In this document: piece by piece, positions 1 to 62,869 of the stretch
Position numbering within the stretch: position 1 is the first letter of the stretch
Layout of the letters: the number at the start of each line of letters is the position of its first letter
Assembly: GCF_964213995.1 (NCBI RefSeq)
Contig: NC_135801.1
Location: 37,696,001-37,760,000 of the forward strand
Source: Mustelus asterias
Taxonomy: Eukaryota
DNA length: 64,000 nt
Direction: 5' to 3'
Notes under the pieces: generated by a model
Database searches by the model: none
What the model saw: the letters and a program-made list of their open reading frames with translations, nothing else
Told to the model about the DNA's origin: nothing
Position numbers and translations under genes: made by a program

Positions 1-660
1 AAAAATCCAAAAACTTCTTAGCAAGAAAAACTCAACTGATTAATCTAAATATAACCTATTCAATTTAGTTCTGTCTCTGTCCAAAAACCTGTGGATGTAG
101 GCTCACTTGTCAATTTAGAATTCTAAGCTCAATTGCCTAGAGATCTTTCAATAATTGCTAATTACTTTTCCTCATTTATTGGTACATCACTAATGGAAGG
201 TTATAGCAGAGGCAATAGTAGAAGATCAAAAGCAATCTCTTCACAGTAATTTGTAATTGAAATTTTTGTTTTAAAAATGTCTACCTCAACATTACCTTGT
301 GGACTAAAATACTGAAAACAGTGGAAATGCTAAATTCAGTCACCTGATTTAAGGTCAAGCCACAAGCGAATCCCGTTCTCAATTGCAACAATGCACAGGG
401 GTGTAAGAGATATCAAAGAGATAATCATATTAACTACAGGTTATATTTAACATACTTGAGAGTTCAACCTACTTATTCTATATCTAGTATTTTTAAAATT
501 ACTACCCTAGAAGTATTGTTAAATTCTTAGAAATATTTTTTTAAAAAGTCACTTTATACAAAATTAAAAATACTTCTGAATACATATCTAGAGAAAAATA
601 AAGAATATTAAAAATTGTTAGTAAATTTTTAATTGTGAATATATTATTAGTCATGTAGAC

Positions 661-970
661 ATAATTCTCAGCCTTTTGGCTAAGATCAAGTTTAGTATCG
701 ACATGCTGTGCTTGTTTGAAGTCATTAGGTTACATTTTAGCTTCATTTGAAGCAATTTTTAAAAGTGGCATCTTGGCCTTTTGGCTAAGATGCAAATAAG
801 ATCAAGCTTTGGAGGAGGAGCTATGCCTACTCCAATCGGCTTGGATCATGTAGATCAAGCCCAAGACAGGAGGTGAGAGCCCTGTCTTGTCAGCTTGGAT
901 CGGGAACGTCTCAACTTGTTGAGACTCTGAATTGGACTTGATTTGATTGAATTGGAATAAAAACAAAAAA
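661..970 (+). mobile_element. U2 snRNA-headed short interspersed repeat, copy 1 (candidate SINEU-like element)
   Basis: TTCTCaGCCTTTTGGCTAAGATCAAGTtTAGTATC matches U2 nt ~6-40; second U2 fragment TCTtGGCCTTTTGGCTAAGAT at 771-791; hairpin-rich body; ATTG-type/A-rich tail; homologous copy at 41709-41982. Confidence 0.8.
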
Positions 971-1475
971 AGACTTAAGTACTGGGAATGAATACATTCA
1001 ACAACATGGAAAAGGTTTAGGAATGTAACCGAGTGCCAAAACACAGTTTTGGTACTATGATTCATCATGTGTTTACTGATCTGCTGTGCTGTTATAGAAA
1101 GGGATAGAGCAAAGACCATTAACCTCTCCCAAAGAAAGTAACATTTTAAATTTGGTAACACTGGCATTGTTACATATTTCTCAATGGCTAGTTATGTAAC
1201 AGCATTTGAAAAAAATCTCAAATTTATCTTCTTGCCCTTCGTAGCCAATTAGCACGGATACATACCAGAAAGTACGGTGAAAAAGGAGGAAATAAATATT
1301 CCTTCAAAAATTGAAAGAAGTTTCACAAAGTTTAACTGTATCTTTTTGCATTTACTAGCTTCCTTTGGTGACTTCAGCTGAGAGTGACATGAGAAATACA
1401 ATTTAGCACTGACTGAATCCCCAAAAATGCAAGCCAACAAAGTTGTACACAACAATCATTTAAGTGGACAAATTC

Positions 1476-4132: not shown

Positions 4133-5314
4133 TGATAAGGTGCCCCATAAAAGGCTGCTGAAGAAGATTAGGGCACACGGAGTTGGGGGTAGTGTGTTAA
4201 AGTGGATTGGGGACTGGCTATCCGACAGGAAGCAAAGAGTCGGAATAAATGGGTGTTTTTCCGGTTGGAGGAAGGTAACTAGTGGCGTGCCGCAGGGATC
4301 GGTACTCGGGCCGCAACTATTTACCATTTATATAGATGATCTGGAGGAGGGGACGGAGTGTAGGGTAACGAAGTTTGCAGACGACACAAAGATAAGTGGA
4401 AAAGTGAATCGTGTGGAGGACGGAGAAGATCTGCAGAGAGATTTGGACAGGCTGAGTGAGTGGGCGAGGATATGGCAAATGGAGTATAACGTTGAGAAAT
4501 GCGAGGTTATACACTTTGGAGGAAATAATAACAAATGGGATTACTATCTCAATGGAAACAAATTAAAACATGCTACCGTGCAAAGGGACCTGGGGGTCCT
4601 TGTGCATGAGACGCAAAAGCCCAGTCTGCAGGTACAACAGGTGATCAAGAAGGCAAATGGGATGTTGGCCTATATTGCGAGGGGGATAGAATATAAAAGC
4701 AGGGATGTCTTGATGCACCTGTACAGGGCATTGGTGAGGCCGCAGCTGGAATACTGTGTGCAGTATTGGTCCCCTTATATGAGGAAGGATATATTGGCAT
4801 TGGAGGGAGTGCAGAGAAGGTTCACCAGGTTGATACCGGAGATGAGGCGTTTGGATTATGAGGAGAGGCTGAGGAGATTGGGTTTGTATTCGTTGGAGTT
4901 TAGAAGGATGAGGGGGGATCTTATGGAGACTTATAAGATAATGCGGGGGCTGGATAGGGTGGAGGCTGAGAGATTCTTTCCACTTAGTAAGGAAGTTAAA
5001 ACTAGAGGACACAGCCTCAAAATAAAGGGGGGTCGGTTTAAGACAGAGTTGAGGAGGAACTTTTTCTCCCAGAGGGTGGTGAATCTCTGGAATTCTCTGC
5101 CCACTGAGGTGGTGGAGGCTACCTCGCTGAATATGTTTAAAGCGCGGATGGATGGATTCCTGATCGGTAAGGGAATTAAGGGTTATGGGGATCAGGCGGG
5201 TAAGTGGTATTGATCCACGTCAGATCAGCCATGATCTTATTGAATGGCGGGGCAGGCTCGAGGGGCTAGATGGCCTACTCCTGCTCCTATTTCTTATGTT
5301 CTTATGTTCTTATG
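4133..5314 (+). mobile_element. Young 5'-truncated CR1 LINE (family A) nested in the old CR1
   Basis: Open frame 4140-5213 with SGVPQGSVLGP and KFADDTK; (TTCTTATG)n tail; nearly identical to 1476-2404. Confidence 0.95.
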
Positions 5315-8373: not shown

Positions 8374-8713
8374 TAGAACCATAGAATCCCTACAGTGCAG
8401 AAAGAGGCCATTCGGCCCATCAAGTCTGCATCAAATCTCCAAAAGAGCATCTTATCCAGTCTCACCCCCACCCTATCCCCCTGCATGCACCATGGCTAAT
8501 CCACCCAACCTGCACATCTTTGGACACTAAGGGGCAATTTAGTGTGGCTAATTCATCTAATTTGCACATCTTTGGGCTGTGGGAGGAAACCAGAGCACCT
8601 GGAGGAAACCCACAAAGACGCAGGGAGAACAGCCAAACAGATAGTCACCCATGACTGGAATTGAACCTGGGTCCCTGGCACTGTGAGGTGAACAACTCTG
8701 CTACCGTGCTGCC
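8374..8713 (-). mobile_element. HE1-like V-SINE with CR1-type tail, inside a decayed minus-strand CR1 (~8025-8915)
   Basis: tRNA head GGCAGCACGGTAGC...GGTTCAATTCC, V-domain GTGGGTTTCCTCCAGGTGCTC, tail CACTGTAGGGATTCTATG. Confidence 0.85.
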
Positions 8714-21555: not shown

Positions 21556-22685
21556 GACTCAATGAAATGGCTGAACCCCAGCCTCTAGAACTTTAAGCTT
21601 AGGTTTTGGTCTCCCTCCACCTTGGAACATGCTCCTCCTATCGATGGTCAAGAACATGTTCTTCTGGATCCAGGCCATGGACTCCAGGGCCTTCCGACCT
21701 GCCTGATGGGCATGAGTACAACAGCGAAGGAGAACGCTGTGAGGAAGATGGTGCTGACTACAGCCCCACTACACAGACAGCTGTGACAAGCTCTGCAGGA
21801 AGGAGGAGGCTGAGGCAGAGAAGCTATTCAGAAAAGGACAAACAAACGTGACCAGTAAAAAAATTAACACAATCTGCTTGTTTTAAGGGATCACACGTAT
21901 TAACATGAGTGAGCACAGGCGAACTCAAATTTGCAAAAATATGCCAACTATATCTTGGGCATGCATATTGTAGTTTCATTTTAAGCAATTAGGAAAAACA
22001 AAAATCCTGTTTATTTTGGTTCTTTACCACATCACTGAAAATGCAGAAGATTTATTTACATTAGGCCAACTCTTCAAGTCTCTGATCATTAGAGACTGGA
22101 CATACAACTGAAGATCTGAGTCAGGACCCTGTGGAAGTAGTGATCTACGGACCCATGTGGAAATTGCCTGGGAAGTTTAAATTTGATGGGCAATTCACCT
22201 GCTATGAGGGACCCTCTGTGAATGTCTCCATCTCTAAGCTAGAGTTGGAGACTTTGGAGAGATCCATGGGACTTACCTTGATAGTTACCCAGAAAATATT
22301 AGACAGATTAAAACCTGGTCTAATACCCAGGTAGCTCCACAACCAAGCCTCCCAATCACTCCCACTGATCACCTGACAACACCCTGACCCAACTGACTGA
22401 CTGAACCAGCCCCTCCCAACTATCCGTCTACCATCCCTGACCACCAAACGACTCCCTGACTCACTCACCCAACTCCCCATTCACTAACTTTCATAAAGAC
22501 TGGACTTTTAAACCAAAAGTTAGCGCAGTAAAAAGGGATGTTTCCCGTCTTCCCCTAACTCTACTTGACTCTGATAATGTTCCCATGGGGACGCTCTGCT
22601 CAGCATTTCCCTGACAACCAGGATCAGGCCTGGAGAATCATCATGCGCAGCAACTCTGCATTCAGCATTGCAGTGCTCAGACTCA

Positions 22686-22975
22686 GAGTCATAGAATCCC
22701 TACAGTGCAGAAGCAGCCCATCAAGTCTGCACCAACCACAATCCCACCCAGGCCCTATTCCCATAACCCCACATATTTACCCTGCTAATCCTCTGACATT
22801 AGGGTCAATTTAGCATGGCCAAATCAACATCTGTGGGAGAAAACTGGAGCACCTGGAGGAAACCCAGCAGACACGGGGAGAATGTGCAAACTTCACACAG
22901 ACGGTTACCCGAGGCTGGAATTGAACTCTGGTTCCTGGCGCTATAAGGCAGCAATGCTAACCACTGTGCTGCCCC
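22686..22975 (-). mobile_element. HE1-like V-SINE, CR1-type tail
   Basis: GGGGCAGCACAGTGGTTAGCA head, TTTGCACATTCTCCCCGTGTCTGC core. Confidence 0.85.
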
Positions 22976-24801
22976 TCACTGAAGACTTAGTGCTTTGTTT
23001 ATTTCAGGTTTGTGTTACCTACTGGAACTAAAAATCTTGGATTGGGAATGAACCTCCTAATAATATATATTTTGAATGGGAAAACCTGCTTCAATATAAG
23101 TAGTTTTAATTTAAACAGTGGTTTTCAGGAATGTATCTACTAGTTAAATGGGGTATTGCTGTATACTTTCATTATTAAAATAAATTGTGATCATATCCAA
23201 GTTAAAAAAATCCAATATCTACGATTGCAAATTTGGATCTCCAATGGTGCCCACTTAGGTTTAATGGCATTTGTGGTCTCAAGTAAACAGTGTTTTACTT
23301 CCATCTGTGTTGACTCATGCTCCTCTACACACAGCATAACCATAATGACGTGAACTGAGTATTTGCATCTCCAGCAAGTGTAGTATTTAATCTCTCCAAG
23401 GCTGAACCAAGCAAATACCTGGTGAGACAAGGCCTGATAGAAATCAATAATTTGCTTTATTTCACAGCAAGGTGAATGTTAACTGACGACAGTTGTAATC
23501 ATACATACTTAATTCTAACAGCATAACCCATCTTTGTGTAATGATACAAAATTTTAAAAATTGCGCCACGTTTTTTAATCTCCCCCTTACTTCAACTTCT
23601 CCAGCATTTCTCATGGAGAAAATGAAGCTTTTACATGATATTTCTCTCAAACTTCCAAGTCCAAAAAGCCCCTTAAACTGTCACATTTTTCTCTCTCTTT
23701 CAAACTTGGATCATAGGACTTTCCAACACAACAACTGTGGGCTATTTTACAATTCCTCCTCCAAGTAACATGCCTCATGTTGGCAACCATGGACTTCCAA
23801 TGTATTGGTCCATGATTACACTTGGCAAGGTACTGTTGTTGCCTTATGCGGTATGTCTGAGCAGGAAACTCTCCTGCATTCACTAACTGCCATCAGGTGC
23901 GTTGGAAGGATTTACCTGTTTGATTATATTATGAGAGCACTTTCCATGGCCCTCAAGTCAAGAAGTGGGGCTTGAATCTCAAGCTTCTGGCCCACATGTA
24001 AGGATGCTACCCAGTCTGTCACAAGACCTCCCAGTTTAAAATTACCACACAAACTAACAAATTGCGCATCATTTATGCTCTGGAGAAAAAACATCTATTT
24101 TGCATTGTCCAGGTGTCTTTTAAAACTTGAGAATACACTTTGCTTAAAAGAAAAACATTTTTAAAGAATTTATGAAACTGTTGCACAATTATGCCAATAG
24201 TTTTAATTTAAAAAATTCACTGTCATAAATGTGATGAGCATCAGCAATGCTTAGCTAGGCGACTTAAGTGAGGGTGATCTAGCTCAGCAGTTTCTCCTTT
24301 CATGCATACTATTAAGTGAACTTCAGAAGTAAAATTGTTCATCAGCTGCCACTTCGATAGTCTCACTCTCCCTGGGATATGGAGGGAGGGAAAAAGAAAT
24401 AGAGGGAGGAAAGCAAGCAGAGAGGAAAGATTTATATTCTTGTTTACTATGTTGCAACACTGCTGTAACTGTTGAAAGTGTTTGACAGCAAAGCAACCAT
24501 GGTTAAAAAGAATGCTGGCACTTGTCACCAAGCCTCACTGGTGAGGTACAAGACAATGACCAGTGTTCATGTAATCTGTCACACCATTTGGGAGGGCAAG
24601 GAGCAAAATAAATTAGTAGGAAAAATAAGAAGTGTTTTTCTTTGCTAATGGACACTCCTGCAGCGTGATATTTATTCTCTGATCCTGATGAAGTAGGAGA
24701 GTGGAGCAAGGCCACAAAAAGACTTAAAAACAATTAATATTGAAATTCTGTCTTAAACTGAAAAGATGCTTGAATTGGCATGAGAAATTAATAGTCTGTA
24801 C

Positions 24802-25001: not shown

Positions 25002-25145
25002 CTTTAAAAAGAAATGATATTCTTTAAAAAAATATACTCTAAGATAGACAGGGTTACTGTCGAAACCAAACTTTGAATTGCCAATAATCTCAGCTACCCT
25101 TATTGATCCTTAATAATTTCCACCACCATTAACCAATCTACAATA

Positions 25146-25450
25146 TCATTGAATCTACAGTACAGGAGGCCATTTGGGCCATCGAGCCTGCACCGACAAC
25201 AATCCCACCCAGGTCCTATCCCCGTAATCCCATATATTTACCGTCCTAATCCCCCTGACACTATGGGGCAATTTATCATGGCCAGTCAACCTAACCCGCA
25301 CATCTTTGAACTGTGGGAGGAAACCGGAGCACCCGGCAGAAACCCACTCAGACATGGGGAGAATGTGCAAACTCCATAGTCACCTGAGGCTGGAATTGAT
25401 CCCGGGTCACTGGCATTGTGAGGCAGCAGTGCTAACCACTGTGCCGCCCC
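25146..25450 (-). mobile_element. HE1-like V-SINE, CR1-type tail
   Basis: Same head, core and tail as the other copies. Confidence 0.85.
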
Positions 25451-31347: not shown

Positions 31348-31696
31348 TCATAGAAATCATAGAAACCCTACAGTGCAGAAAGAGGCCATTCGGCCCATCG
31401 AGTCTGCAGTGACCACAATCCCACCCAGGCCCTACCTCCATATCCCTACACATTTTACCCACTAATCCCTCTAACCTACGCATCTCAGGAAACTAAGGGG
31501 CAATTTTAGCACAGCCAATCAACCTAACCCACACATCTTTGGACTGTGGGAGGAAACCGGAGCACCCGGAGGAAACCCACGCAGACACGAGGAGAATGTG
31601 CAAACTCCACACAGACGGTGACCCGAGCCGGGAATCGAACCCAGATCCCTGGAGCTGTGAAGCAGCAGTGCTAACCACTGTGCTACCGTGCCGCCC
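31348..31696 (-). mobile_element. HE1-like V-SINE, CR1-type tail (well preserved)
   Basis: GGGCGGCACGGTAGCACAGTGGTTAGC A box, GGTTCGATTCC B box, (TTTCTATGA)n tail. Confidence 0.9.
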
Positions 31697-32408
31697 ATTA
31701 ATTCCATGAATTAAAAGAAAAAAACTTCTGAAACATGCCTCCTGCTTAGTCAGCTCACAATGCTATTGTTACAATACAGAGAAGTGGTCGACATAGGTAT
31801 CTCCTGAATCATTTATAGGCTAACTGGCATTGTCAGAAGCTTCCCTAGATTGCTTGGTTCCTTCAAATGTAAAGAGGTCGGATTATCTGAAAGCAATAGA
31901 GACCAAAAGAAATGGCTCACTTTTGTGAGGGACTAAGACTTTTTAAAAATATAGAGAAATATGCTCATTGCTATCTCTAAAAAATGCAAACTGGAAATGG
32001 TTGAATCCACACCTGTTTGTGACTCTGAACAGAAAAAGTTAACTGACAGTATCGGGAAAACTTGCATATTGTTATTTCTGAAGAGCCACTATCACTGAAC
32101 AAATTCAAAGAGTGCTACACAAAGGCCCTCTGCATTTCATAAACCAGGCTGTTAAGACAAAGGGACCCCCAACCTTCCTTTCAATTGTAAATGAATGAGA
32201 TATTTAACAATCTCAGGGACCCAGACAAGGGATACATGCCCTTTGTCAAAGACAGTGTGAATAGTCCTGTGACATATTGCCTTGCTGAACTGCAAACTCC
32301 TGGGGCACGATCTTAGAAAAAATATTCTAAGTGCCGAACAAGCGAGAAAACAGGAGAGAGTTGCGCCAGATTTTTCGGCAACCTGCAAGTCTCAATCATA
32401 TGGCACTT

Positions 32409-32748
32409 TCATAGAATCATAGAATCGTACAGTGTAGAAGGAGGCCACTCTGCCCATCGAGTCTGCACCGACCACAATCCCACCCAGGCCCTATTCCCTT
32501 AACCCCATGTATTTACCCTAGCTAGTCCCCCTGACACTAAGGGGCAATTTAAATTTAGCATTGCCAATCAACCTAACTTGCACATCTTTGGAGTGTGGGA
32601 GGAAACCGGAGCATCCGGGGGAACCCCACGCAGACATGGAGAGCGTGCAGCCTCCGCACAGACAGACAGTGACCCAAGCCGGGGATCGAACCTGGATCCC
32701 TGGCACTGTGAGGCAGCAGTGCTAACCACTGTGCCACCCATCCGCCCC
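32409..32748 (-). mobile_element. HE1-like V-SINE, CR1-type tail
   Basis: A box, B box GGTTCGATCCC, V-domain, tail ATTCTATGATTCTATGA. Confidence 0.9.
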
Positions 32749-32863: not shown

Positions 32864-33950
32864 GTGGCCGATTGGATAGGTAACTGGCTGTCTGATCGAA
32901 GACAGAGGGTGGTGGTGGATGGAAAATTTTCGGATTGGAGGCAGGTTGCTAGCGGAGTGCCGCAGGGATCAGTGCTCGGTCCTCTGCTCTTTGTGATTTT
33001 TATTAATGACTTCGAGGAGGGGGCTGAAGGGTGGATCAGTAAATTTGCTGATGACACCAAGATTGGTGGAGTAGTGGATGAGGTGGAGGGCTGTTGTAGG
33101 CTGCAAAGAGACATAGATAGGATGCAAAGCTGGGCTGAAAAATGGCAAATGGAGTTTAACCCTGATAAATGTGAGGTGATTCATTTTGGTAGGACTAATT
33201 TAAATGTGGATTACAGGGTCAGAGGTAGGCTTCTGAAGACTGTGGAGGAACAGAGAGATCTTGGGGTTCATATCCACAGATCTCTAAAGGTTGCCACTCA
33301 AGTGGATAGAGCTGTGAAGAAGGCCTATAGTGTGTTAGCTTTTATTAACAGGGGGTTGGAGTTTAAGAGCCGTGGGGTTATGCTGCAACTGTACAGGACC
33401 TTGGTGAGACCACATTTGGAATATTGTGTGCAGTTCTGGTCACCTCACTATAAGAAGGATGTGGAAGCGTTGGAAAGAGTGCAGAGGAGATTTACCAGGA
33501 TGCTGCCTGGTTTGGAGGGTAGGTCTTATGAGGAAAGGTTGAGGGAGCTAGGGCTGTTCTCTCTGGAGCGGAGGAGGCTGAGGGGAGACTTAATAAAGGT
33601 TTATAAAATGATGAAGGGGATAGATAGAGTGAACGTTCAAAGACTATTTCTTCGGGTGGATGGAGCTATTACAAGGGGGCATAACTATAGGGTTTGTGGT
33701 GGGAGATACAGGAAGGATATCAGAGGTAGGTTCTTTACGCAGAGGGTGGTTGGGGTGTGGAATGGACTGCCTGCAGTGATAGTGGAGTCAGACACTTTAG
33801 GAACATTTAAGCGGTTATTGGATAGGCACATGGAGCACACCAGGATGATAGGGAGTGGGATAGCTTGATCTTGGTTTCAGATAAAGCTCGGCACAACATC
33901 GTGGGCCGAAGGGCCTGTTCTGTGCTGTACTGTTCTGTGTATGTGTATGT
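32864..33950 (+). mobile_element. Young 5'-truncated CR1 LINE (family C) nested in a decayed minus-strand CR1 (~32750-35270)
   Basis: Open RT frame to 33868 (SGVPQGSVLGP, KFADDTK); 3' end GGGCCGAAGGGCCTGTTCTGTGCTGTACTGTTC. Confidence 0.95.
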
Positions 33951-37248: not shown

Positions 37249-37570
37249 TCATAGAATCCCTACAGTGCAGAAGGCCATTCGGCACATCGAGCCTGCACCA
37301 ACAACAATCCCACCCAGCCCCTATCCTCGTAACCCCATGTATTTACCCTGTTAATCCCCTTAACCTACACATCTTGGGACACTAAGGGGCAATTTTGCAT
37401 GGCCAATCAACCTAACCCGCACATCTTTGGATATGGGAGCACCCAGAGAAAACCCACGCAGACAAAGGGAGAACGCACAAACTCCACACAGTCACCCGAG
37501 GCCGGAATTCAACCCAGGTCCCTGGTGCTGTGATGCAGCAGTACTAACCACTGTGCCACCATGCCACCCC
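37249..37570 (-). mobile_element. HE1-like V-SINE, CR1-type tail
   Basis: Same head, core and tail as the other copies. Confidence 0.85.
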
Positions 37571-41350: not shown

Positions 41351-41708
41351 AGGTGTGGGGGGTGGGGGCGGGGAACCACACACAAATCCCCTGGTAAACT
41401 GAACATGTGAGCAAAAAACTTACCATTATTTATAGTCTTCTAATATTGTTGGTCGATGAATAGACATTTGAATATTACTGTTTATTAGGCATTAATTAAA
41501 ACTTAGATTTATTGGTGGTATTCTTTGGCCTATATGGTCCATTGGACTGCATATAAAATTTTGATTGAAAAAGATTGTGGGGAAAGTTGGTTCTATCGAT
41601 TAAAAGAGCTCGCTCGCTACCGCTTTGTTCCCAGGGATGGGGAAAAAAAACAAGCAAAAAATGTTTTGTGCCATAACAAAATTTGCATAACAAAGTCAAT
41701 CAAGTCTA

Positions 41709-41982
41709 TTTTTTAAAATCCAATTCAATGTCTCAACAAGTGAGACATTCCCGATCCAAGCTGACAAGACAGGGCTCTCACCTCCTGTCTTGGGCTTGAT
41801 CTACATGATCCAAGCTGATTGGACTAGGCATTGCACCTCCTCCAAGGCTTGATCATATTTACATCTTAGCCAAAAGGCCAAGATGCTGCTTTTAAAAATT
41901 GCTTCAAATGAAACTAAAACGTAACCTAATGACTTCAACCAAGTACAGCATGTCGATACCACACTTGATCTTAGCCAAAAGG
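41709..41982 (-). mobile_element. U2 snRNA-headed short interspersed repeat, copy 2
   Basis: Reverse complement reads CCTTTTGGCTAAGATCAAGTGTgGTATCGACATGCTG... and is colinear with 672-930, with scattered substitutions and unrelated flanks. Confidence 0.8.
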
Positions 41983-45600: not shown

Positions 45601-45603
45601 TCA

Positions 45604-45950
45604 GGGTGGCACATTGATTGGCACTGCTGCCTTACAGTGCCAGGGTCCCAGATTCAATTCCAGACTTGGGTAACTGTCTGTAAGGAGTTTGCACATTCTC
45701 CCCATGTCTGTGTGGGTTTCCTCTGGGTGCTCAGGTTTCCTCCCACAATCCAAAGATGTGCAGGTTAGGTGGATTGACCATGCTAATTTGACCCTCAGTG
45801 TCCAAAGATGTGTATGTTATGGGGATTAGTGGGGTAAATATTTGGGGTTACAAGGAAAGGGCCTGGGTAATTTGCTCTGTCAAAGAATCAGTGCAGACTC
45901 GATGGGCTGAATTTCCTCCTTCAGAACTATAGGGTTTCTAGATTCTATGA
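45604..45950 (+). mobile_element. HE1-like V-SINE, CR1-type tail
   Basis: B box GATTCAATTCC, V-domain, tail GACTCGATGGGCTGAA...GATTCTATGA. Confidence 0.85.
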
Positions 45951-46082
45951 AAAGTGACGGCCTTAAGCCTGCCCCTGATCAGATCATTTTACGTTATATA
46001 TCGCATGAGCCCAGACAATATTTTCCAATATCTGGCTCATTCTACAATCCATCTTGTACATGTGAATGTATAGTTGTAAATT

Positions 46083-46358
46083 GTGGCACAGTGGTTAGCT
46101 GGACCAGGACCCAGGTTTGATTGCCAGCTTGGATCACTGTCTGTGCAGAATCTGCATGTTCTCCCAGTGTCTGCGTGGTTTTCCTCCAGGTGCTCCGGTT
46201 TCCTCTCAGTCTGAAAGGCCTGCTGGTTAGATGCATTGGCCATGCTAAATTCTCCCAAAATAGGCGCTGGAGTGTGCCGACTAGGGGATTTTCACAGTAA
46301 CTTCATTGTAGTGTTAATGTAAGCCTACTTGTGACATCAATAAATAAACTTTAAACTT
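46083..46358 (+). mobile_element. V-SINE variant with alternative (non-CR1) tail
   Basis: HE1-like head and core, then GACTAGGGGATTTTCACAGTAACTTCATTG...GTGACATCAATAAATAAACTTTAAACTT. Confidence 0.85.
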
Positions 46359-48205
46359 AGCACTGGCAGAGACAAGGAAGTAAACTTTTCTTCCAATTTG
46401 GATAGAAAGGTGGTTAGTGAGGAAAGACCAAAGAATGGAAGGAAAGAAAAACCCCAACATATCAACACAAAGCAAATTAGTTGTTAAATTTGGTGAAATG
46501 CAAAAAGAAAATTCAGGATTACTGAAATGTTTCTAGCAGAATTATGGAATAGTTTAGACTAATGGCCCAATGTATGACAAAACTCAAGTTTATTTAGCTG
46601 ATGGCAGTTCGCCACCAATGTAGGACACACATGCTCAAATTATCCCAGATCCTTACTGCTGAGAGGGCACGTGGACTTTCATTCAGAATTTCTCCAATAT
46701 CCATTTGGCTGACTATCATTAGCACTTTGTAAACATGTATATGAGATCCATGCACGTTTCTAAACATGCCTATTCACAAAAGAAATTTCAGCTTTTGACA
46801 AACAGTACATGCTTACAATTTATTAACTTGTTAGATACAGGTAGCAATTTTAAGCTCCAAGGACAGGTAAGTTGTGAGACCAGAGTGGGAGATAGTCGCA
46901 GAGTCATACTGTTAAGAAAAGGCCCGTTGGTCCATCGAGTCTCCAATAACTTCCACTAAAGTCAGGCTAATTCCATTTTCCAGCACTTGTCCCATATCCT
47001 TGAATGTTACGATGTTTCAAGTCTCTGAATATCCTGCCTCAAAAAATTATGCCCTTCACGATTAACCCCTCAAACAAGGGGAATAGCTGCCTCCTATTCA
47101 CCCTGTCCATACCCCTAATAATCTTATAGACCTCAATCATGTCACCTCTCAGCCTTCTCTGCCATAAAGAAAACAATCCAAGCCTTTCCAATCTCTCCTT
47201 ATAGCTCAAAAATGCTCCATCCCAGGCGACATCCTGGTGAACCTCCTCTGTGCTCCCTCTAGTGCAATCACATCCTTCCTATAGTGAGGTGACCAAAATT
47301 GTACACATTACTCCAGCTGTGACCTAATCAACATTCTGTACAGCTCTAACATTACCTCCCTGCTCTTATATTTTATGCCGCGGCTGATAAAATATGCCTT
47401 CTTAACTATCCTATTCACCTGCTCTGCTGCGTTCAGGGATCTGTGAATAAGTACCCCAAAATCCATCTGTTCCACTGAGCTTCCTAATGTTCTGCCATTC
47501 ATTAAAAATTCCCTTGTCTTGTTATATCTCCCAAAGTGCATCACCTCATACTTATCAGGGTTAAATACCATCGGCCACTGCTCTGCCCATATGACCAACT
47601 CATCAATATCTCCCTGTAACCTATTACCTTCTTCTTCACTATTAACCACGCTACCAATCTTAGTGTCACCTGAAAACTTGCTTATCATTCCCCCCCCCCA
47701 CATTACCATCTGTACTATTTATGTATATAACAAACAATAAGGGTCCCACCATTAAACCTTGTGATATGCCACTGAACACCAGCCTCCATCCACTCAAAAA
47801 GCCTTCTATCACCATCCTTTGTATCCTATTAGTAAGCCAGTTTCGGATCCATCTTGCCAAGTTTCCCTGAATTCCATGTGCTTCAATCTTCTCAATCAGT
47901 CTCCCATGTAGGGCCTTGTTAAAGGCTTTGCTAAAATCGATATAAACTACATCAACGGCACTTCCCTTATCCACACAATCACATTTTCAAAACTTCCATC
48001 AAATTTGTTAGGCATGTCCTCCCTCTGACAAAGCCATGAGGACTACTCCTAATTAATCCATGTCTTTTCAAGTAGAAATTAATTTTCTCCTTCAGAATTT
48101 TCTCACCACTGATGTGAGATTCACCAGTCTGTAATTTCCTGGTCATCTCTACCACTCTTCTTGAAAATTGGAACCATCCTCCAGTCCTCTGGCACTTCCC
48201 CCATG

Positions 48206-48398
48206 ATGTGGAGATGCCGGCGTTGGACTGGGGTGAACACAGTAAGAAGTCTCACAACACCAGGTTAAAGTCCAACAGGTTTATTTGGTAGCAAATACCA
48301 TAAGCTTTCGGAGCGCTGCTCCTTCGTCAGATGGAGTGGAAATGTGAGTGGTATTTGCTACCAGATAAACCTGTTGGACTTTAACCTGGTGTTGTGAG
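48206..48398 (-). mobile_element. Penelope-like pLTR with partial inverted copy and a 12-bp flanking direct repeat
   Basis: Homologous to 6311-6434; 48348-48402 is the inverted copy of 48247-48300; ACTTCCCCCATG at 48194-48205 and 48399-48410. Confidence 0.85.
48298..48334 (-). ncRNA. Minimal type I hammerhead ribozyme
   Basis: Minus strand CCAT-CTGACGA-A-GGAGC(AGC)GCTCC-GAAA-GC-TT-ATGG. Confidence 0.78.
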
Positions 48399-49617
48399 AC
48401 TTCCCCCATGGCCAGAGAGGAATTAAAAATGTGTGTCAGAGCCCCTGCAATTTTCTGCCTCACCTCCCACAACAGCCTGGGATGCAATTTATCCAGGCTT
48501 AGGAATTTGTCCATTTTTAAGCCCGTAAGAGTCTCCATTACCTCCTCATTTCCTATGTCAAAAGGTGCAAATTCCTCAGTCCCTTTTCTTGAATTCTGTA
48601 CCTAAATTCTCCTTTTCCTGAGTGAAGACCAATGTGAAGTATTCATTTTAACACCCTTCCAATGTCCTGCAGTTTCACTCACAGATCGCCCCTTTGGTCT
48701 CTATTGGGCCTCTTTCCCTGATTAATCTCTTCCCCTTAATGTGTTTATAGAATATCTTAGAATTCTCCCTAATCTTGTTCGCAAATCCTTTTTTGAGCCC
48801 CCTTTTTGCTCCTGAAAATGTTAGGATTCTCAAACCTAACCTGCCTTCAACCAACTCATCTCTGGTTTTAACAGAGGTGAATTAGAGGGTAGGCAACCAA
48901 TCAACTCTCAGGAGGCAGGCCGGTCATTAAAATCTTTTAAGGAGGCTGCATTTCCGGAGCGTTTTTTTCAAAACTCAGACCAGGATTCATAGGCCTCAGG
49001 AATCCAGCAGGTAAAAGGAGGTAAGAGTAGCAGAATCCATTGGATAAGCGTTTTCAATGCACTGCTTGAAGGCCAGAGAAGCAGGAGTGTTCCTCCAGAC
49101 CCCAAACTTTCCTTTACATAAATCAACCCCCCGTGATCAGCTGACTCCCACCCTGCTTCATGGCATCTGCTTTCCAACTGGTTTCACACCCAACAGCAGC
49201 AAGGCAGCTTTTCATTTTCACAGTTTAGCAAAAAAAGTAGAGGACATCGGCAATTAATTTATGGAAGGTGTGTAGTGAAGTGATACTTTGAGGTTTCCTG
49301 TCCAAAACATCCTCCTACACTCCCTTCTCACTCTATTCTAGCACTTGGTAATTATTGGGACCAATGAGTTTGAGAATTAAAAAAAACTTGCATTTATAGC
49401 ATCGTTCTTATTCTTAGAATATCCCAAAACACTTGCAGCTAATTACCTACTTATAAATATGTCACTATTGTACTGCAGGCAAAAACTGAAATGAATTTGT
49501 GCACAACTATATCCTATAAACAGCTTTGAGTTAAATGACCAGATAATCTGTTTTAGTAGTTATTTGAAGGATAAGTCTTACCAAGGCACAGGATGAACAC
49601 CCTGCTCTATCTGAGAG

Positions 49618-49910
49618 AGTTTAAGTTTTTTTATTAGTGTCACAAGTAGGCTTACATTAACAATGCAATGAAATTACTGTGAAAATCTCCTAGTTGCCAC
49701 ACTCTTAGCATCTGTTCAGGTAAACTGAGGGAGAACTTAGCATGGCCAATGCACCTAAACCAGCATGTCTTTCGGACTGTGGGTGGAAACCCACGCAGAC
49801 ACGGGGAGAAAGTGCAGACTCTGCACAGACAGTGACCCAGGCCGGACTTGAACCCAGGTTCCTGGCGCTGTGAGGCAGCAGTGCTAACCACTGTGCCACC
49901 GTGATTGCCC
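49618..49910 (-). mobile_element. V-SINE variant with alternative tail
   Basis: Same organisation as 46083-46358. Confidence 0.85.
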
Positions 49911-49914
49911 ATAA

Positions 49915-52470
49915 GGAACATAAAGTGACTCAGTAAAGCAAACACAAGAGAGAAATTAATTGAACTAAAAACTGACAAATCCCCTGGAGCTGATGGCCCA
50001 CGTCCCATGGAGTTGAAAGAACTGGCTGAGGAGATAATGAATGCAATGTCTTTGATCTTCCAAAAATCCCTAAATTCAAGAATGGTTTCTGTGAATTGGA
50101 AGATAACACATGTAAACCCTCTTGTTTAAGGAAGGAGAAATTAGAGAACCATAGGTCAGTTAGCCTGACACCAGTAGCACAAAAAATGCGAGAACATGTT
50201 TTTAAGGATGTGGTAACAGAGCACCTTAAAAATTGTAGTATGATTAGGTAGAGTAAACAAATATTGAAAGAAATTCATGTTTGATAAATATGTTAGGCGT
50301 TTGATAAGGTCCCCCATGGTCGGCTTATGATGAAAGTGAGGAGGTGTGGGATAGAGGGAAAGTTGGCCGATTGGATAGGTAACTGGCTGTCTGATCGAAG
50401 ACAGAGGGTGGTGGTCGATGGAAAATTTTCAGATTGGAGGCAGGTTGCTAGCGGAGTGCCGCAGGGATCAGTGCTTGGTCCTCTGCTCTTTGTGATTTTT
50501 ATTAATGACTTAGAGGAGGGGGCTGAAGGGTGGATCAGTAAATTTGCTGATGACACCAAGATTGGTGGAGTAGTGGATGAGGTGGAGGGCTGTTGTAGGC
50601 TGCAAAGAGACATAGATAGGATGCAAAGCTGGGCTGAAAAATGGCAAATGGAGTTTAACCCTGATAAATGTGAGGTGATTCATTTTGGTAGGACTAATTT
50701 AAATGTGGATTACAGGGTCAAAGGTAGGCTTCTGAAGACTGTGGAGGAACAGAGAGATCTTGGGGTCCATATCCACAGATCTCTAAAGGTTGCCACTCAA
50801 GTGGATAGAGCTGTGAAGAAGGCCTATAGTGTGTTAGCTTTTATTAACAGGGGGGTTATGCTGCAACTGTACAGGACCTTGGTGAGACCACATTTGGAAT
50901 ATTGTGTGCAGTTCTGGTCACCTCACTATAAGAAGGATGTGGAAGCGCTGGAAAGAGTGCAGAGGAGATTTACCAGGATACTGCCTGGTTTGGAGGGTAG
51001 GTCTTATGAGGAAAGGTTGAGGGAGCTAGGGCTGTTCTCTCTGGAGCGGAGGAGGCTGAGGGGAGACTTAATAGAGGTTTATAAAATGATGAAGGGGATA
51101 GATAGAGTGAACGTTCAAAGACTATTTCTTCGGGTGGATGGAGCTATTACAAGGGGGCATAACTATAGGGTTTGTGGTGGGAGATACAGGAAGGATATCA
51201 GAGGTAGGTTCTTTACGCAGAGAGTGGTTGGGGTGTGGAATGGACTGCCTGCAGTGATAGTGGAGTCAGACACTTTAGGAACATTTAAGCGGTTATTGGA
51301 TAGGCGCATGGAGCACACCAGGATGATAGCTTGATCTTGGTTTCAGATAAAGCTCGGCACAACATCGTGGGCCGAAGGGCCTGTTCTGTGCTGTACTGTT
51401 CTATGTTCTATGTTAGGTTTTTATGGGTGTAACTAGTAGGAATGGTAAGAGAAAACGGTGGATGCAGTACATTTGGATTTTCAGAAGACAAATGGTAAAG
51501 TACTAAATAAGAGTTAGTGCTTATTGGACTGTCAGGTTGGTCAACTCTAATTAGTGGAGTACGAGAAGAATTGGTGCTTGGGCCTCAGCTATATACGATC
51601 TATATCAATGAATTATAGGGATCCAGCATAGTATATATGTATATATAATATATAATTTGTTGATAGTACAGACTCAGGTGGGAAAGAGCAGTAAGGAGGC
51701 AGTAGAGAGGCTGTGAAGGGACACACGACCAGTTAAGTGACTGGACAAGAAGGTGGCAGTTGGATTATGTGAGGAAGCGCAAAATTATCTACATTGGTTA
51801 GCAAGAATCAAAAGACATTATTTTTTCAAGTTGAAAATCCAGTAAACATTGTTATTCATTCCGGTCTGGGGATGTGCATGAATTACAAAGTTAACATGCA
51901 GATACAGTAAATAATTAGGAAGCCAAATGGTGTGTTAGTCTTTACTGCAACGAGTTTGCACTAAAGGGCAAGGGAGTCTTGCTGCAATTGTACACAGCTT
52001 TCTTGAAATGATATCTGGAATACTGTATCCAACTTTGGTCACTTTACCTCAAGAAAGATATTGTTGCCTGTGAGGGTGAGCAAGGAAGGGTGACTAGATT
52101 GATTCCTGGAACGAGAGAACTGTCTTAGGAGGAGAGCTTGAGTAGAATAGGCCTATATTCTGTGACATTTAGAAGAATGGGAGATGATCTCATTGTAATC
52201 TATAAAATTAAGTAAATTTGATAGGATAGATGTTGAAAGGCTGTTTCACCTGATCGGAGTGTCTAGAAAAAGGGGCAATTCCCTAGAGAGCTGTTGATGC
52301 TCAGTGCATGAATATACTTGAGGCAGACTGGATGATTTTGAACGCTAAGGTCCGCAAAGAATATATGGATAGGACAGGAAATTACGAGTTTTTGAAGAAG
52401 TTCACACATAATTTTAGCAAATGGTAGAGAAGGATCAATGGGCCTTCTGTTGTTCCCATTTCTTATGGTC
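49915..52470 (+). mobile_element. Old decayed CR1 hosting a young CR1
   Basis: ACAAATCCCCTGGAGCTGATGG, CAGTTAGCCTGACA upstream; host resumes after 51414 with GTACATTTGGATTTTCAGAAG. Confidence 0.75.
50296..51414 (+). mobile_element. Young 5'-truncated CR1 LINE (family C)
   Basis: ORF 50327-51334 nearly identical to 32864-33868; (TTCTATG)n tail; TATGTTAGG on both sides. Confidence 0.95.
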
Positions 52471-54061: not shown

Positions 54062-55350
54062 CTTTGAAAACAGAAATACACAAGAGTCACATATAGTTGT
54101 AAGATATTTAAAATGTTAACAATTGCTCAAGAAAACCCTGAACTTCTTTCAAACATACCTGGGAGCCTACAACTCTAACCAATTGCAATCCCTGAGATTT
54201 AATTTAAAGGACTATCAATTTTTAAAACTGTGTTTGAAAATCTGAGAGATAGTTTATTCTGATGACACTGCAAGGCATCCCAGAAAAGCCCTGTGGTGAA
54301 AAGCTGCAAGTGAAGGATACAAAATGGAGAGAAGATACGAGTAATGGAATACAAGCGAAGAAAATGGTCTCTCAATTTCAATTGGATACACTTAGAAATG
54401 ATCCATCAGCAGGAATGTAATTGAGGTGGATGCTCTCGTCCAGAAAGTCAATTGGTGAAGATAATCTTGACGCACTTGTATATTTATTCACAGATTTACA
54501 CATTACAAACTAATACCTCCTAACCCAATGACGGCAATTTTAGCATATCTCTTAATAGCAGCTCAAATGAATCTCCAGCTAACGCCCAACACTTGCATAC
54601 AATGAAAACGCAATTAACAGTTTACAAGTCCAGAGTACTAATCAGTAACCATATATTAAGATGCTGTCAGTTCTAAAAAATAGTTAAAACTCTTGATATG
54701 AACAAATTTGAAGAGTTGCATCTCAAAACTTATTGCTTTTTAGAAATGTGTTTGCAGTTATGTTGCAACGTCACTCATATCATTCCTGCCAAAATAATTC
54801 TGTTATACAAATTTGTATCTCTTTTTTTTAAATTAAGCATTGCACTATACTATTGAGAAAGATCCTGATTGATTAGAGGGTATCCAAGGACATTAAAAAC
54901 AAGGAAGATAATTTTAAAATTGAGGCATTGCTTAAGTAGGAACAAATGTAATTACCAAACACAGGGGTGACATGTGAACAGGATTTGGAGATGAGCAAAA
55001 ACAAGGGCTGGATGACCTTAGGTTTTCACACAAGGTCAGATCTGGGACTTCAGCAAGGAGTCATTGAACAGTCAAGTCCAGAGGTAACAAAAACACACAA
55101 GATTTTAGCAAAATTGGGTGATATCATGGAGGTGAAAATAGGCAGTCTTAGTGATATGCGAACATTTGATCAAATGCTCAGTTTCAAGTCAAAGATGACA
55201 CCAACGTTGCAAATGTCTGGTTTAGCCTAAGATGCCTGGGAAAAGAATGGAGCCAGCGAGGGAACGGAGTATGTAGCAATAACAGAAGACAACATCTTTG
55301 CTCCTCCACTATTAAATGAGGAAATGTCTGCTTATCCAGTACTGAATGTC

Positions 55351-55650
55351 TAAGTTTAAGTTTTATTTATTAATGTTACAAGTAGATGTACATTAACACT
55401 GCAATGAAATTACTGTGAAACCCCCCTAGCCGCCATACTCTAGTGCCTGTTCGGGTACACTTGAGGGAGAATTTAGCATGGCCAATGCACCTAATCAGCA
55501 CATCTTTCGGACTGTGGGAGGAAACCGGGGCACTTGGAGGAAAATCACGCAAACACGGAGAGAATGTGCAGACTCTACACAGACAGTCACCCAAGCCAGA
55601 AATTGAACCCTGGCGCTGTGAGGCAGCGGTGCTAACCACTGTGCCATCGC
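55351..55650 (-). mobile_element. V-SINE variant with alternative tail, within decayed L2-like sequence (~54880-56580)
   Basis: Same organisation as 46083-46358. Confidence 0.85.
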
Positions 55651-60669: not shown

Positions 60670-62869
60670 ATCATAGAGTCATAGAGGTTTACAGCATGGA
60701 AACAGGTCGTTCGGCCCAACTTGTCCATGCCGCCCTTTTTTTTAGAAACCCGTAAGCTAATCCCAATTGCCCACATTTGGTCCATATCCCTCTATACCCA
60801 TCGTACCCATGTAACTATCTAAGTGCTTTTTAAAAGATAAAATTGTACCCACCTCTACTACCACCTCTGGCAGCTTGTTCCAGACACTCACCACCCTCTG
60901 TGTGGAAAAATTTGCCCCTCTGGACACTTTTGTATCTCTCCCCTCTCACCTTAAACCTATGCCCTCTAGTTTTGGACTCCCCTACCTTTGGGAAAAGATA
61001 TTGATTATCTACCTTGTCTATGCCCCTCATTATTTTACAGACCTCTATAAGATCACCCCTCAGCCTCCTACGCTCCAGAGAAGAAAGTCCCAGTCTATTC
61101 AGCCTTTCCTTATAACTCAATCCACCAAATCCCAGTAGCATCCTAGTAAATCTTTTCTGTACTCTTTCTAGTTTAATAATATCCTTTCTATAACAGGGTG
61201 ACCAGAATTGCACACAGTATTCCAAGTGTGGCCTTACCAATGTCTTGCACAACTTCAACAAGACGTCCCAACTCTTGTATTCAATGTTCTGACCAATGAA
61301 ACCAAGCATGCCGAATGCCTTCCTCATCACTCTGTCCACCTGTGACTCCACTTTCAAGGAGCTATGAACATGTACCCCGAGATCTCTTTGTTCTGTAACT
61401 CTCCCCAACGCCCTACCATTAACTGAGTAAGTCCTGCCCTGGTTCAATCTACCAAAATGCATCACCTTGCATTTGTCTAAATTAAACTCCATCTGCCATT
61501 CGTCAGCCCACTGGCCCAATTGATCAAGATCCCGTTGCAATTGGAGATAACTCTCTTCACTGTCCACTATGCCACCAATCTTAGTGTCATCTGCAAACTT
61601 ACTAACCATGCCCCCTATATTCTCATCCAAATCACTGTTCTATCAAAGGTAGGGTTCTGAAGACTGTGGAGGAACAGAGAGATCTTGGGGTTCATATCCA
61701 CAGATCTCGAAAGGTTGCCACTCAAGTGGATAGAGCTGTGAAGAAGGCCTATAGTGTGTTAGCTTTTATTAACAGGGGGTTGGAGCTTAAGAGCCGTGGG
61801 GTTATGCTGCAACTGTACAGGACCTTGGTGAGACCACATTTGGAATATTGTGTGTAGTTCTGGTCACCTCACTATAAGAAGGATGTGGAAGCGCTGGAAA
61901 GAGTGCAGAGGAGATTTACCAGGATGCTGCCTGGTTTGGAGGGTAGGTGTTATGAGGAAAGGTTGAGGGAGCTAGGGCTGTTCTCTCTGGAGCGGAGGAG
62001 GCTGAGGGGAGACTTAATAGAGGTTTATAAAATGATGAAGGGGATAGATAGAGTGAACGTTCAAAGACTATTTCCTCGGGTGGATGGAGCTATTACAAGG
62101 GGGCATAACTATAGGTGGGAGATAGCGTGGTGGGAGATACAGGAAGGATATCAGAGGTAGGTTCTTTACGCAGAGAGTGGTTGGGGTGTGGAATGGACTG
62201 CCTGCAGTGATAGTGGAGTCAAACACTTTAGGAACATTTAAGCAGTTATTGGATAGGCACATGGAGCACACCAGGATGATAGGGAGTGGGATAGTTTGAT
62301 TTTGGTTTCAGATAAAGCTCGGCACAACATCGTGTGCCTCAGGGAACAGTGGGCCCAGCACTGATCCCTGAGGCACACCGGTGATCACAGGCCTCCAGTT
62401 TGAAAAACAACTCTCTACAACCATCCTCTGGCTTCTGTTAAGAAGCCAATTTTGTATCCATTTAGATACCTCACCCTGGATCCCGTGAAATTTAACTTTA
62501 TGCAACAACCTACCATGCGGTACCTTGTCAAAGGCCTTGCTAAAGTCCATGTAGACAACATCAACTGCACTGCCCTCATCTACCTTCTTGGTTACCTCCT
62601 CAAAAAACTCAATTAAATTTGAGACACATGATTTTCCACTCACAAAGCCATGCTGACTGTCCCTAATCAGTCCTTGCATCTCTAAATGCCTGTAGATCCT
62701 GTCTCTCAAAATACCTTCCAACAATTTACCCACCACAGATGTGAGGCTCACTGGCCTGTAGTTCCCAGGCTTTTCCCTGCAGCCCTTTTTAAACAAAGGC
62801 ACAACATTTGCCACTCTCCAATCTTCAGGCACCTCACCCGTGACTATCGATGATTCAAATATCGATGCT
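60670..62869 (-). mobile_element. Fairly young CR1 LINE (family D) split into 60670-61634 and 62346-62869
   Basis: 62346-62869 encodes PEDWRVANV...NYRPVSLTS...DFSKAFDKVPH...GVPQGSVLGP; 60830-61630 continues DENIGGMVSKFADDTK; (CTCTATGA)n tail. Confidence 0.92.
61634..62334 (+). mobile_element. CR1 family C fragment inserted antisense into family D, lacking its normal 3' end
   Basis: Near-identical to 50718-51369; one stop (TAG at 61855-61857) and one indel near 62115; ends at AACATCGTG. Confidence 0.92.

Follow-up and report, generated by a model that had tools for sequence, protein, structure and literature searches.

Retroposons headed by small nuclear RNA (snRNA) sequences are known from SINEU, short interspersed elements (SINEs) that Kojima (2015) reported in crocodilians only, leaving their transcription open because snRNA promoters are external (PMC4494074). 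Two further systems are close in other respects: Keno, a U2-targeting long interspersed element (LINE) of the Tx1 clade with an apurinic/apyrimidinic endonuclease (APE) and a reverse transcriptase (RT), whose 3′ end lies at U2 nt 38 (PMC4494074, PMC4640811), and R2, for which annealing of 28S 5′ leaders has been proposed to produce uniform 5′ junctions (PMC3774820) and whose short internally deleted elements (SIDEs) are ribozyme-released deletion derivatives (PMC3414825). Here we describe a multi-copy, U2-headed, A-tailed retroposon family flanked by target-site duplications (TSDs) in the shark Mustelus asterias. Two of its copies lie in a stretch of 64,000 nucleotides (NCBI RefSeq assembly GCF_964213995.1, contig NC_135801.1, positions 37,696,001 to 37,760,000, forward strand), which we call the window. 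Judged from its structure, it is a SINEU-like family outside the crocodilians, and its origin is likely independent of crocodilian SINEU, the two being compared by description.

The likeness to SINEU-1, -2 and -3 is extensive (PMC4494074). As in those elements, the shark SINE has an snRNA-derived head, a non-coding length below 500 bp, an A tail, TSDs and internal oligo-T, moves as a unit, forms tandem copies that sandwich a TSD, is matched by no LINE with the same 3′ end, and may likewise depend on a partner LINE of the Tx1 type, akin to Keno. Both kinds of element have gained snRNA pieces at the 5′ end more than once, as seen here in an internal U2 4-27 piece, in extra U2 5′ fragments preceding copies L028, L144, L153 and L154, and in an older family, which we call C, whose head sits on diverged U2. 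SINEU-3 too is composed entirely of U2, with a head reduced to its first 32 nt. Unlike SINEU, the shark SINE has no U1 part, favors the U2 gene as its target rather than Mariner-N4, carries an antisense (fold-back) arm as well as hairpin modules in duplicate, and includes copies fused to U2 upstream DNA (PMC4494074). Its partner LINE resembles Keno in having APE and RT domains and a 3′ junction fixed at U2 nt 38, the site that the SINE also uses; in contrast to Keno, the SINE is non-coding and the LINE has a U2 1-33/35 head and mostly dispersed 3′ ends (PMC4494074, PMC4640811). Like R2 SIDEs, the SINE is non-autonomous, lives in its partner's target gene and, as we propose, is co-transcribed from the host promoter (PMC3414825), and like R2 with 28S leaders it would carry target sequence at its RNA 5′ end and anneal to give uniform junctions (PMC3774820). 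Unlike SIDEs, it derives from the target RNA gene, has no ribozyme match in Rfam and is spread genome-wide.

A preliminary description of the window had recognized a unit of ~300 bp that opens with U2 nt ~6-40, contains a second U2 5′ fragment, ends in ATTG-type and A-rich sequence, and recurs as a colinear copy on the opposite strand with different flanks, and each of these points held. The head, at window 665-699, is identical to nt 6-40 of a U2 gene of the same genome at 33 of 35 positions, and Rfam matches U2 at window 661-858 (50.6 bits, E=4e-7); the second fragment was located at 768-791 (U2 nt 4-27); and the two copies are 92.5% identical over 268 bp, the second running from 41982 to 41716 on the minus strand between unrelated flanks. 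The view that the body is non-U2 had to be given up, since 703-731 runs antisense to U2 nt 11-39 and, via family C, homology to diverged U2 extends over 852-956. The parts are as follows.

665..699, plus strand: U2-derived head, U2 nt 6-40 (33/35 identical; nt 1-5 missing, nt 33 changed)
703..731, plus strand: antisense (fold-back) arm, the complement of U2 nt 11-39; its pairing is predicted to hide the branch-point recognition sequence
740..764, plus strand: short hairpin and A/T run of no detected origin; comparison with U2 41-191 gave no match (z=-0.1 with segment 41-108)
768..793, plus strand: second U2 piece (nt 4-27), which an extended stem closes
799..847, plus strand: hairpin module 1; it and module 2 are duplicates (z=5.8)
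852..901, plus strand: hairpin module 2, whose homologue, the only module of family C, aligns to U2 nt ~22-61
908..925, plus strand: terminal hairpin, aligned via family C to U2 nt ~66-82
929..956, plus strand: ATTG-type repeats, aligned via family C to the U2 region immediately 5′ of the Sm site
957..971, plus strand: A-rich tail
41703..41982, minus strand: second copy, 5′-truncated to U2 nt 13, of a related subfamily; TSD not clear

We take U2 nt ~66-82 to be stem IIb. A weak 7/8 direct repeat at window 657-664 and 971-978 may be the TSD of the first copy.

As the preliminary description supposed, the chimera has been amplified as a unit and is not a one-off U2 pseudogene. A DNA search returned 2,679 candidates, 40 of which were scored to give 41 matches (40 at 95-100% identity); an exact 32-mer had 2,072 genome matches (control 0), and a 22-mer with up to two mismatches had 7,037 (control 1), so that the copy number of at least 7,037 is a lower bound. 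The high copy number suggested from two copies in 64 kb was thus borne out, but the window is not typical: the genome density is ~1 per 520 kb (7,037 matches in 3.68 Gb), which makes two copies in 64 kb above average, and 14 other 10-kb stretches held none. Copies are ~305-330 bp long and non-coding, with A-rich 3′ tails, and 96 near-full copies, a sample skewed to the window's own subfamily (A; the remaining subfamilies are B), fell into 24 clusters at 93.5% identity. TSDs of about 10-22 bp reached a score of at least 10 in 28/80 copies versus 16/400 mismatched pairs; another screen gave 63/141 against 21/141 in a control inflated by SINE-internal words. Tandem arrangement was found in 33/108 copies, often with a TSD sandwiched between them.

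The ends are equally regular. In a census of 109 copies on contig C1, picked by a 3′ motif, 87 were scored for heads, 21 were counted as truncations that reach the body, a few of them in error, and 1 had no head. Heads started most frequently at U2 nt 1 (19) and next at nt 2 (10), with 47 starting at nt 1-5, and 81/87 ended at nt 37 (19), 39 (40) or 40 (22), which is also where the Keno-type LINE described below sits in U2; in intact copies the head is identical to U2 nt 1-40. In four of the 96 copies, 11-22 clustered A>G changes on the sense strand stand against 0-1 T>C (L110:1634-1938, L081:1230-1544, L154:1197-1498 and L091:947-1213); these are probably fossil traces of ADAR, acting on a structured RNA that was later reverse-transcribed. 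A search of sequencing runs found 24-91% of sampled words in 8 organisms from 8 studies, one of which may be the source, suggesting that the family is common to related species; rows with a small share were left aside, and no RNA dataset was among the holders listed. Helitron, long terminal repeat (LTR) and ribozyme readings were dropped in view of the TSDs, the A tails and an Rfam result of U2 alone, and an Rfam MIR2118 match (E=0.27) was treated as chance. As a separate observation, loci L171/L172 (C1, 112.24 Mb) hold a tandem chimera of a SINE 5′ half, U2 4-94 and a LINE-like 3′ segment, inserted at the SINE's internal U2 piece.

The U2 genes of this genome are of two types. Type-1 genes lie on contig C24 in a 1,833-bp array and an 8,035-bp array, and type-2 genes (~89% identical to type 1) on C21 in a 448-bp array. 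The 8,035-bp unit, which comprises an intact U2 gene and an interrupted LINE, is tandemly amplified ~16 times at C24 44.81-44.94 Mb (L061, L132); the type-2 array at C21 28.05-28.08 Mb (L156-L159) is LINE-rich, and L157:1689-5120 on the minus strand holds an uninterrupted APE+RT frame of 1,144 aa. The array LINE encodes a ZCCHC3-like/zinc-knuckle ORF1 and an APE+RT ORF2 (Pfam Exo_endo_phos, RVT_1, zf-RVT), carries a U2 1-33/35 head, and has tails that adjoin U2 nt 38-40 in both the C24 and C21 arrays. Its homologues, at 38-47% identity, are amphibian and unnamed proteins without element names, and its 3′ end has at least 707 exact matches, mostly dispersed. The APE+RT domains and the U2 nt 38 junction fit a Keno-type element as described. 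In the 1,833-bp array, 7/41 U2 genes (L116, L118, L119) align 16 bp longer at ~88% identity and are variant or damaged genes.

SINE and LINE meet repeatedly. The SINE stands directly behind the LINE tail in 3 of 19 independent loci (20 fetched), and there is one mixed cassette, against a chance of ~4e-5 per site estimated from the genome density; SINE and LINE pieces are also stacked at non-U2 sites (L024, L134). The U2 site common to the SINE and the APE+RT LINE, together with nesting at LINE tails, may reflect mobilization by a Tx1-type LINE. Besides the U2 head, the two elements are alike only in ~10 nt of the tail; a match of 26 nt between a SINE module and the LINE 5′ end was not significant (E=2.6; z=1.5).

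SINE copies occupy the U2 genes themselves. SINE tails are joined to U2 nt 38-52 in 10 matches at 9 places (control 0), U2 nt 38-66 being present at 102 sites genome-wide. At five loci a SINE is fused seamlessly at +1 to 230-300 bp of U2 upstream DNA.

L066: SINE at +1, 297/300 identical to type-1 gene upstream DNA
L141: 227/230 identical to upstream DNA of an intact gene, in the C21 array
L147: 224/230 identical to upstream DNA of an intact gene
L143: 217/230 identical to upstream DNA of an intact gene
L146: 211/230 identical to upstream DNA of an intact gene

Thirteen exact type-2 upstream/U2 junctions lead into a SINE in seven cases (two of these near-identical to each other), into a LINE in two and into U2 in four. 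Several different SINE subfamilies are present at U2 loci. L111, considered as a further promoter-linked candidate, was rejected, its 7-nt U2 upstream match possibly being chance. A block near -65 to -48 is common to both types of upstream DNA.

Dispersed copies also carry pieces of U2 loci. L205 consists of a subfamily-A copy with its tail, U2 38-191 and ~38 nt of type-1 3′ flank, all within a 14-bp TSD; the TSD of L144 encloses 93 bp of type-2 upstream DNA; and L143 and L147 are TSD-flanked array pieces with the whole spacer. Dispersed retrocopies with U2 flanks inside TSDs therefore point to template RNAs from U2 loci, and L205 to an RNA of the window's subfamily that ran through a U2 gene into its 3′ flank.

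From the arrangement of these sequences we think it quite likely that the SINE is a retroposon made of U2 pieces that inserts at the U2 site of the Keno-type LINE, is transcribed from the host U2 promoter and is reverse-transcribed by the LINE's proteins. In the scheme that we infer, the LINE APE would nick U2 at nt 37/38 and prime on the A tail, and cDNA of the U2 head would anneal to the 5′ end of the target U2, placing the SINE at U2 +1 behind the external promoter; the R2 precedent supports such annealing as a source of uniform 5′ junctions (PMC3774820). RNA polymerase II would then make RNA from U2 +1, or by read-through of the array. Most of these RNAs would end up off-target, as dead copies lacking a promoter; the sources would be renewed by an occasional insertion on target or by cassettes that bring a promoter along, yielding many subfamilies with a fresh head. 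Selection would remove or mask the branch-point recognition sequence.

Several points weigh against this scheme. The evidence for capture of the U2 promoter is genomic, and the shared upstream block resembles a proximal sequence element (PSE), to judge by its position and the general consensus. The copy at L066, linked to the type-1 promoter, has an internally deleted body, and searches of the genome found no promoter-linked copy of subfamily A. Thus the preliminary description's suggestion that a master copy with an upstream PSE be sought was answered in part: five SINEs lie behind U2 upstream DNA, none of them of the window's subfamily. Where a cassette contains the promoter, its RNA would have begun upstream of it and read through, and U2 +1 is then not the start of every template. 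A U2 upstream match of at least 4 nt was found in 0/41 dispersed full-length 5′ ends, which a start at +1 also predicts. Beyond the U2 head the SINE body has no significant similarity to the LINE 5′ or 3′ untranslated region (UTR; z=0.3, -1.6). On this comparison, derivation of the SINE by internal deletion of the LINE, as in a SIDE with both ends homologous to its partner, was rejected, and the array LINE is not the LINE with a common 3′ end that the preliminary description proposed to look for. Dispersed SINE insertion sites (n=43) have A at -1 (32/43) and -2 (22/43) and no U2-like consensus beyond this. Finally, LINE pieces at U2 loci were sought with queries unable to recognize Utopia, other Tx1 elements lying outside the search.

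The strongest competitor holds that the U2-embedded copies are by-products and that most of the family owes its transcription to host introns or to promoters in unrelated flanks, as in Kojima's proposal for SINEU (PMC4494074), and does no more than use Keno-type enzymes. It could draw on the lack of a promoter-linked source for the window's subfamily, on the 0/41 upstream matches and on the position of both window copies, which probably lie within introns of BLTP1. However, 5′ ends concentrate at U2 nt 1-2 next to unrelated flanks, as a U2 +1 start predicts, L205 records RNA of the window's subfamily that extended across a U2 gene as far as the 3′ flank, and several subfamilies are found at U2 loci; we therefore consider this explanation unlikely.

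Less probable still is that transcription occurs at U2 loci as proposed while another LINE (a Tx1 family, L1, or Utopia, with its restriction-like endonuclease) supplies RT for most dispersed copies. Utopia cuts the same U2 site (PMC4640811), the Keno-type LINE has no 3′ UTR in common with the SINE, and off-target sites lack a consensus. Keno-type tails are nevertheless themselves dispersed, with at least 707 exact 3′ ends, and share insertion sites and TSDs with the SINEs, and the LINE pieces at the cut site in the fetched U2 loci are Keno-type, as far as queries blind to Utopia can tell.

We give very little credence to a conventional SINE transcribed by RNA polymerase III (Pol III) with the module start as its internal B box. 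Module starts of subfamily A fit a loose B-box pattern, but the match is missing in the scanned subfamily B copy, a sense-strand A box was not found in the copies scanned, and T4-T5 runs occur at nt ~14, 96 and 119. The Pol III route is unlikely because of these internal runs and because no conserved boxes were found; an internal promoter head and freedom from early oligo-T, the marks of a classical Pol III SINE, are both lacking. The preliminary description's statement that no tRNA A/B boxes are visible agrees with this, since a tRNA gene search of the window found none and Rfam reported U2 only. Independent U2 chimeric pseudogenes or segmental duplications, with which the extra U2 5′ fragments ahead of four copies might agree, are refuted for practical purposes by thousands of copies with one internal mosaic, subfamily-diagnostic loops, A tails, unrelated flanks and individual TSDs, the same marks that speak against an LTR.

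The origin of the body can be followed through family C, which gave 2,072 candidates and in which a U2 1-34 head precedes a near-full but diverged U2 (L122:821-1010, L018:1820-2040, L298-L327); two of its copies, L207 and L210, end at the U2 nt 38 site. Single copies of family C matched U2 41-191 with z=8.5 and 5.7 (0/1,000 shuffles) and a third with z=3.2. A profile of 30 copies, run against a set of five target sequences, matched type-1 U2 at E=2e-9, type-2 U2 at E=0.012, the A body at 1e-10 and the B body at 1e-9. The 3′ part of A and B aligns to U2 only weakly when compared directly (z=1.8-2.9), whereas the route via family C is strong. The 29 nt that follow the head are antisense to U2 11-39, with a predicted duplex of -24.5 to -28.2 kcal/mol against -10 to -12 kcal/mol for shuffles, 0-1/2,000 of which match the real duplex. 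On this evidence we read the body as a fold-back antisense copy of the head joined to diverged U2, the two being linked via family C.

Differences in the stem between head and antisense arm are mostly G-U wobbles, and the predicted fold of three copies is better than that of all shuffles (z=-4.4, -5.9, -5.7). Covariation is weak in 31 A/B copies, with two-sided change in 1/67 pairs and 12/500 shuffles reaching the paired percentage; in 14 hand-picked module segments it affects 5/12 pairs (24 cells vs 9.2 +/- 2.3, the sequences being related). The branch-point recognition sequence, which we take to be U2 nt 33-38, is cut off in family C heads and mutated in the family C body, and in three A/B copies it is predicted to be paired at 4-6 of 6 positions versus 1/6 in U2. 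Selection may have driven this loss or masking. We lean, by a narrow margin, towards regarding the element as a parasite that lives on the U2 gene and renews itself there: a SINE lineage descended from a mutated U2 retrocopy and reinserted seamlessly by the LINE with a fresh head and promoter, whose antisense arm would hide the branch-point recognition sequence and so protect splicing. If true, this would explain in general how SINEs with an snRNA head and no promoter of their own come to be transcribed. U2, family C and the present mosaic would form a traceable series, and a constraint is suggested on retroposons built from spliceosomal RNAs, namely that they lose or mask the branch-point recognition sequence.

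The family extends snRNA-headed SINEs to a second vertebrate class. A literature search outside subscription journals, Repbase Reports and Dfam found no shark snRNA-headed SINE, and the excerpts of PMC5381603, PMC5499810, PMC7245038 and PMC4758252 contain no mention of one; that a consensus is already catalogued in Repbase or Dfam seems to us somewhat doubtful, if by no means far-fetched. Since L141, L143, L146, L147 and L066 hold a SINE at U2 +1, the question of transcription is directly testable, and site-specific seamless insertion is relevant to targeted-insertion tools.

The window also contains part of a gene and other repeats. Six exons of the N-terminal region of BLTP1 (KIAA1109) lie at window 11463-36777 on the minus strand; BLTP1_N was matched by 6/54 of the longer open frames scanned, and in a limited search of 18 candidate proteins the sole matches to one of the exons were two from Scyliorhinus, at 82% identity, in keeping with a shark host. 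Two 929-bp LINE-like 3′ fragments, at 1476-2404 and 4385-5313, are 99.1% identical and 2.9 kb apart. Another repeat, of ~330 bp, in which ARAGORN calls no tRNA, occurs in about ten copies at 72-80% identity (8374-8713, 22685-22977, 25145-25449, 31348-31696, 32407-32747, 37249-37569, 45601-45952, 46084-46360, 49618-49904 and 55350-55649). A younger repeat has three copies that are 92-96% identical (32865-33940, 50364-51406 and 61643-62344). Self-complementary (palindromic) repeats lie at 48246-48403 and 62332-62378, the first belonging to a family present in many of the fetched loci.
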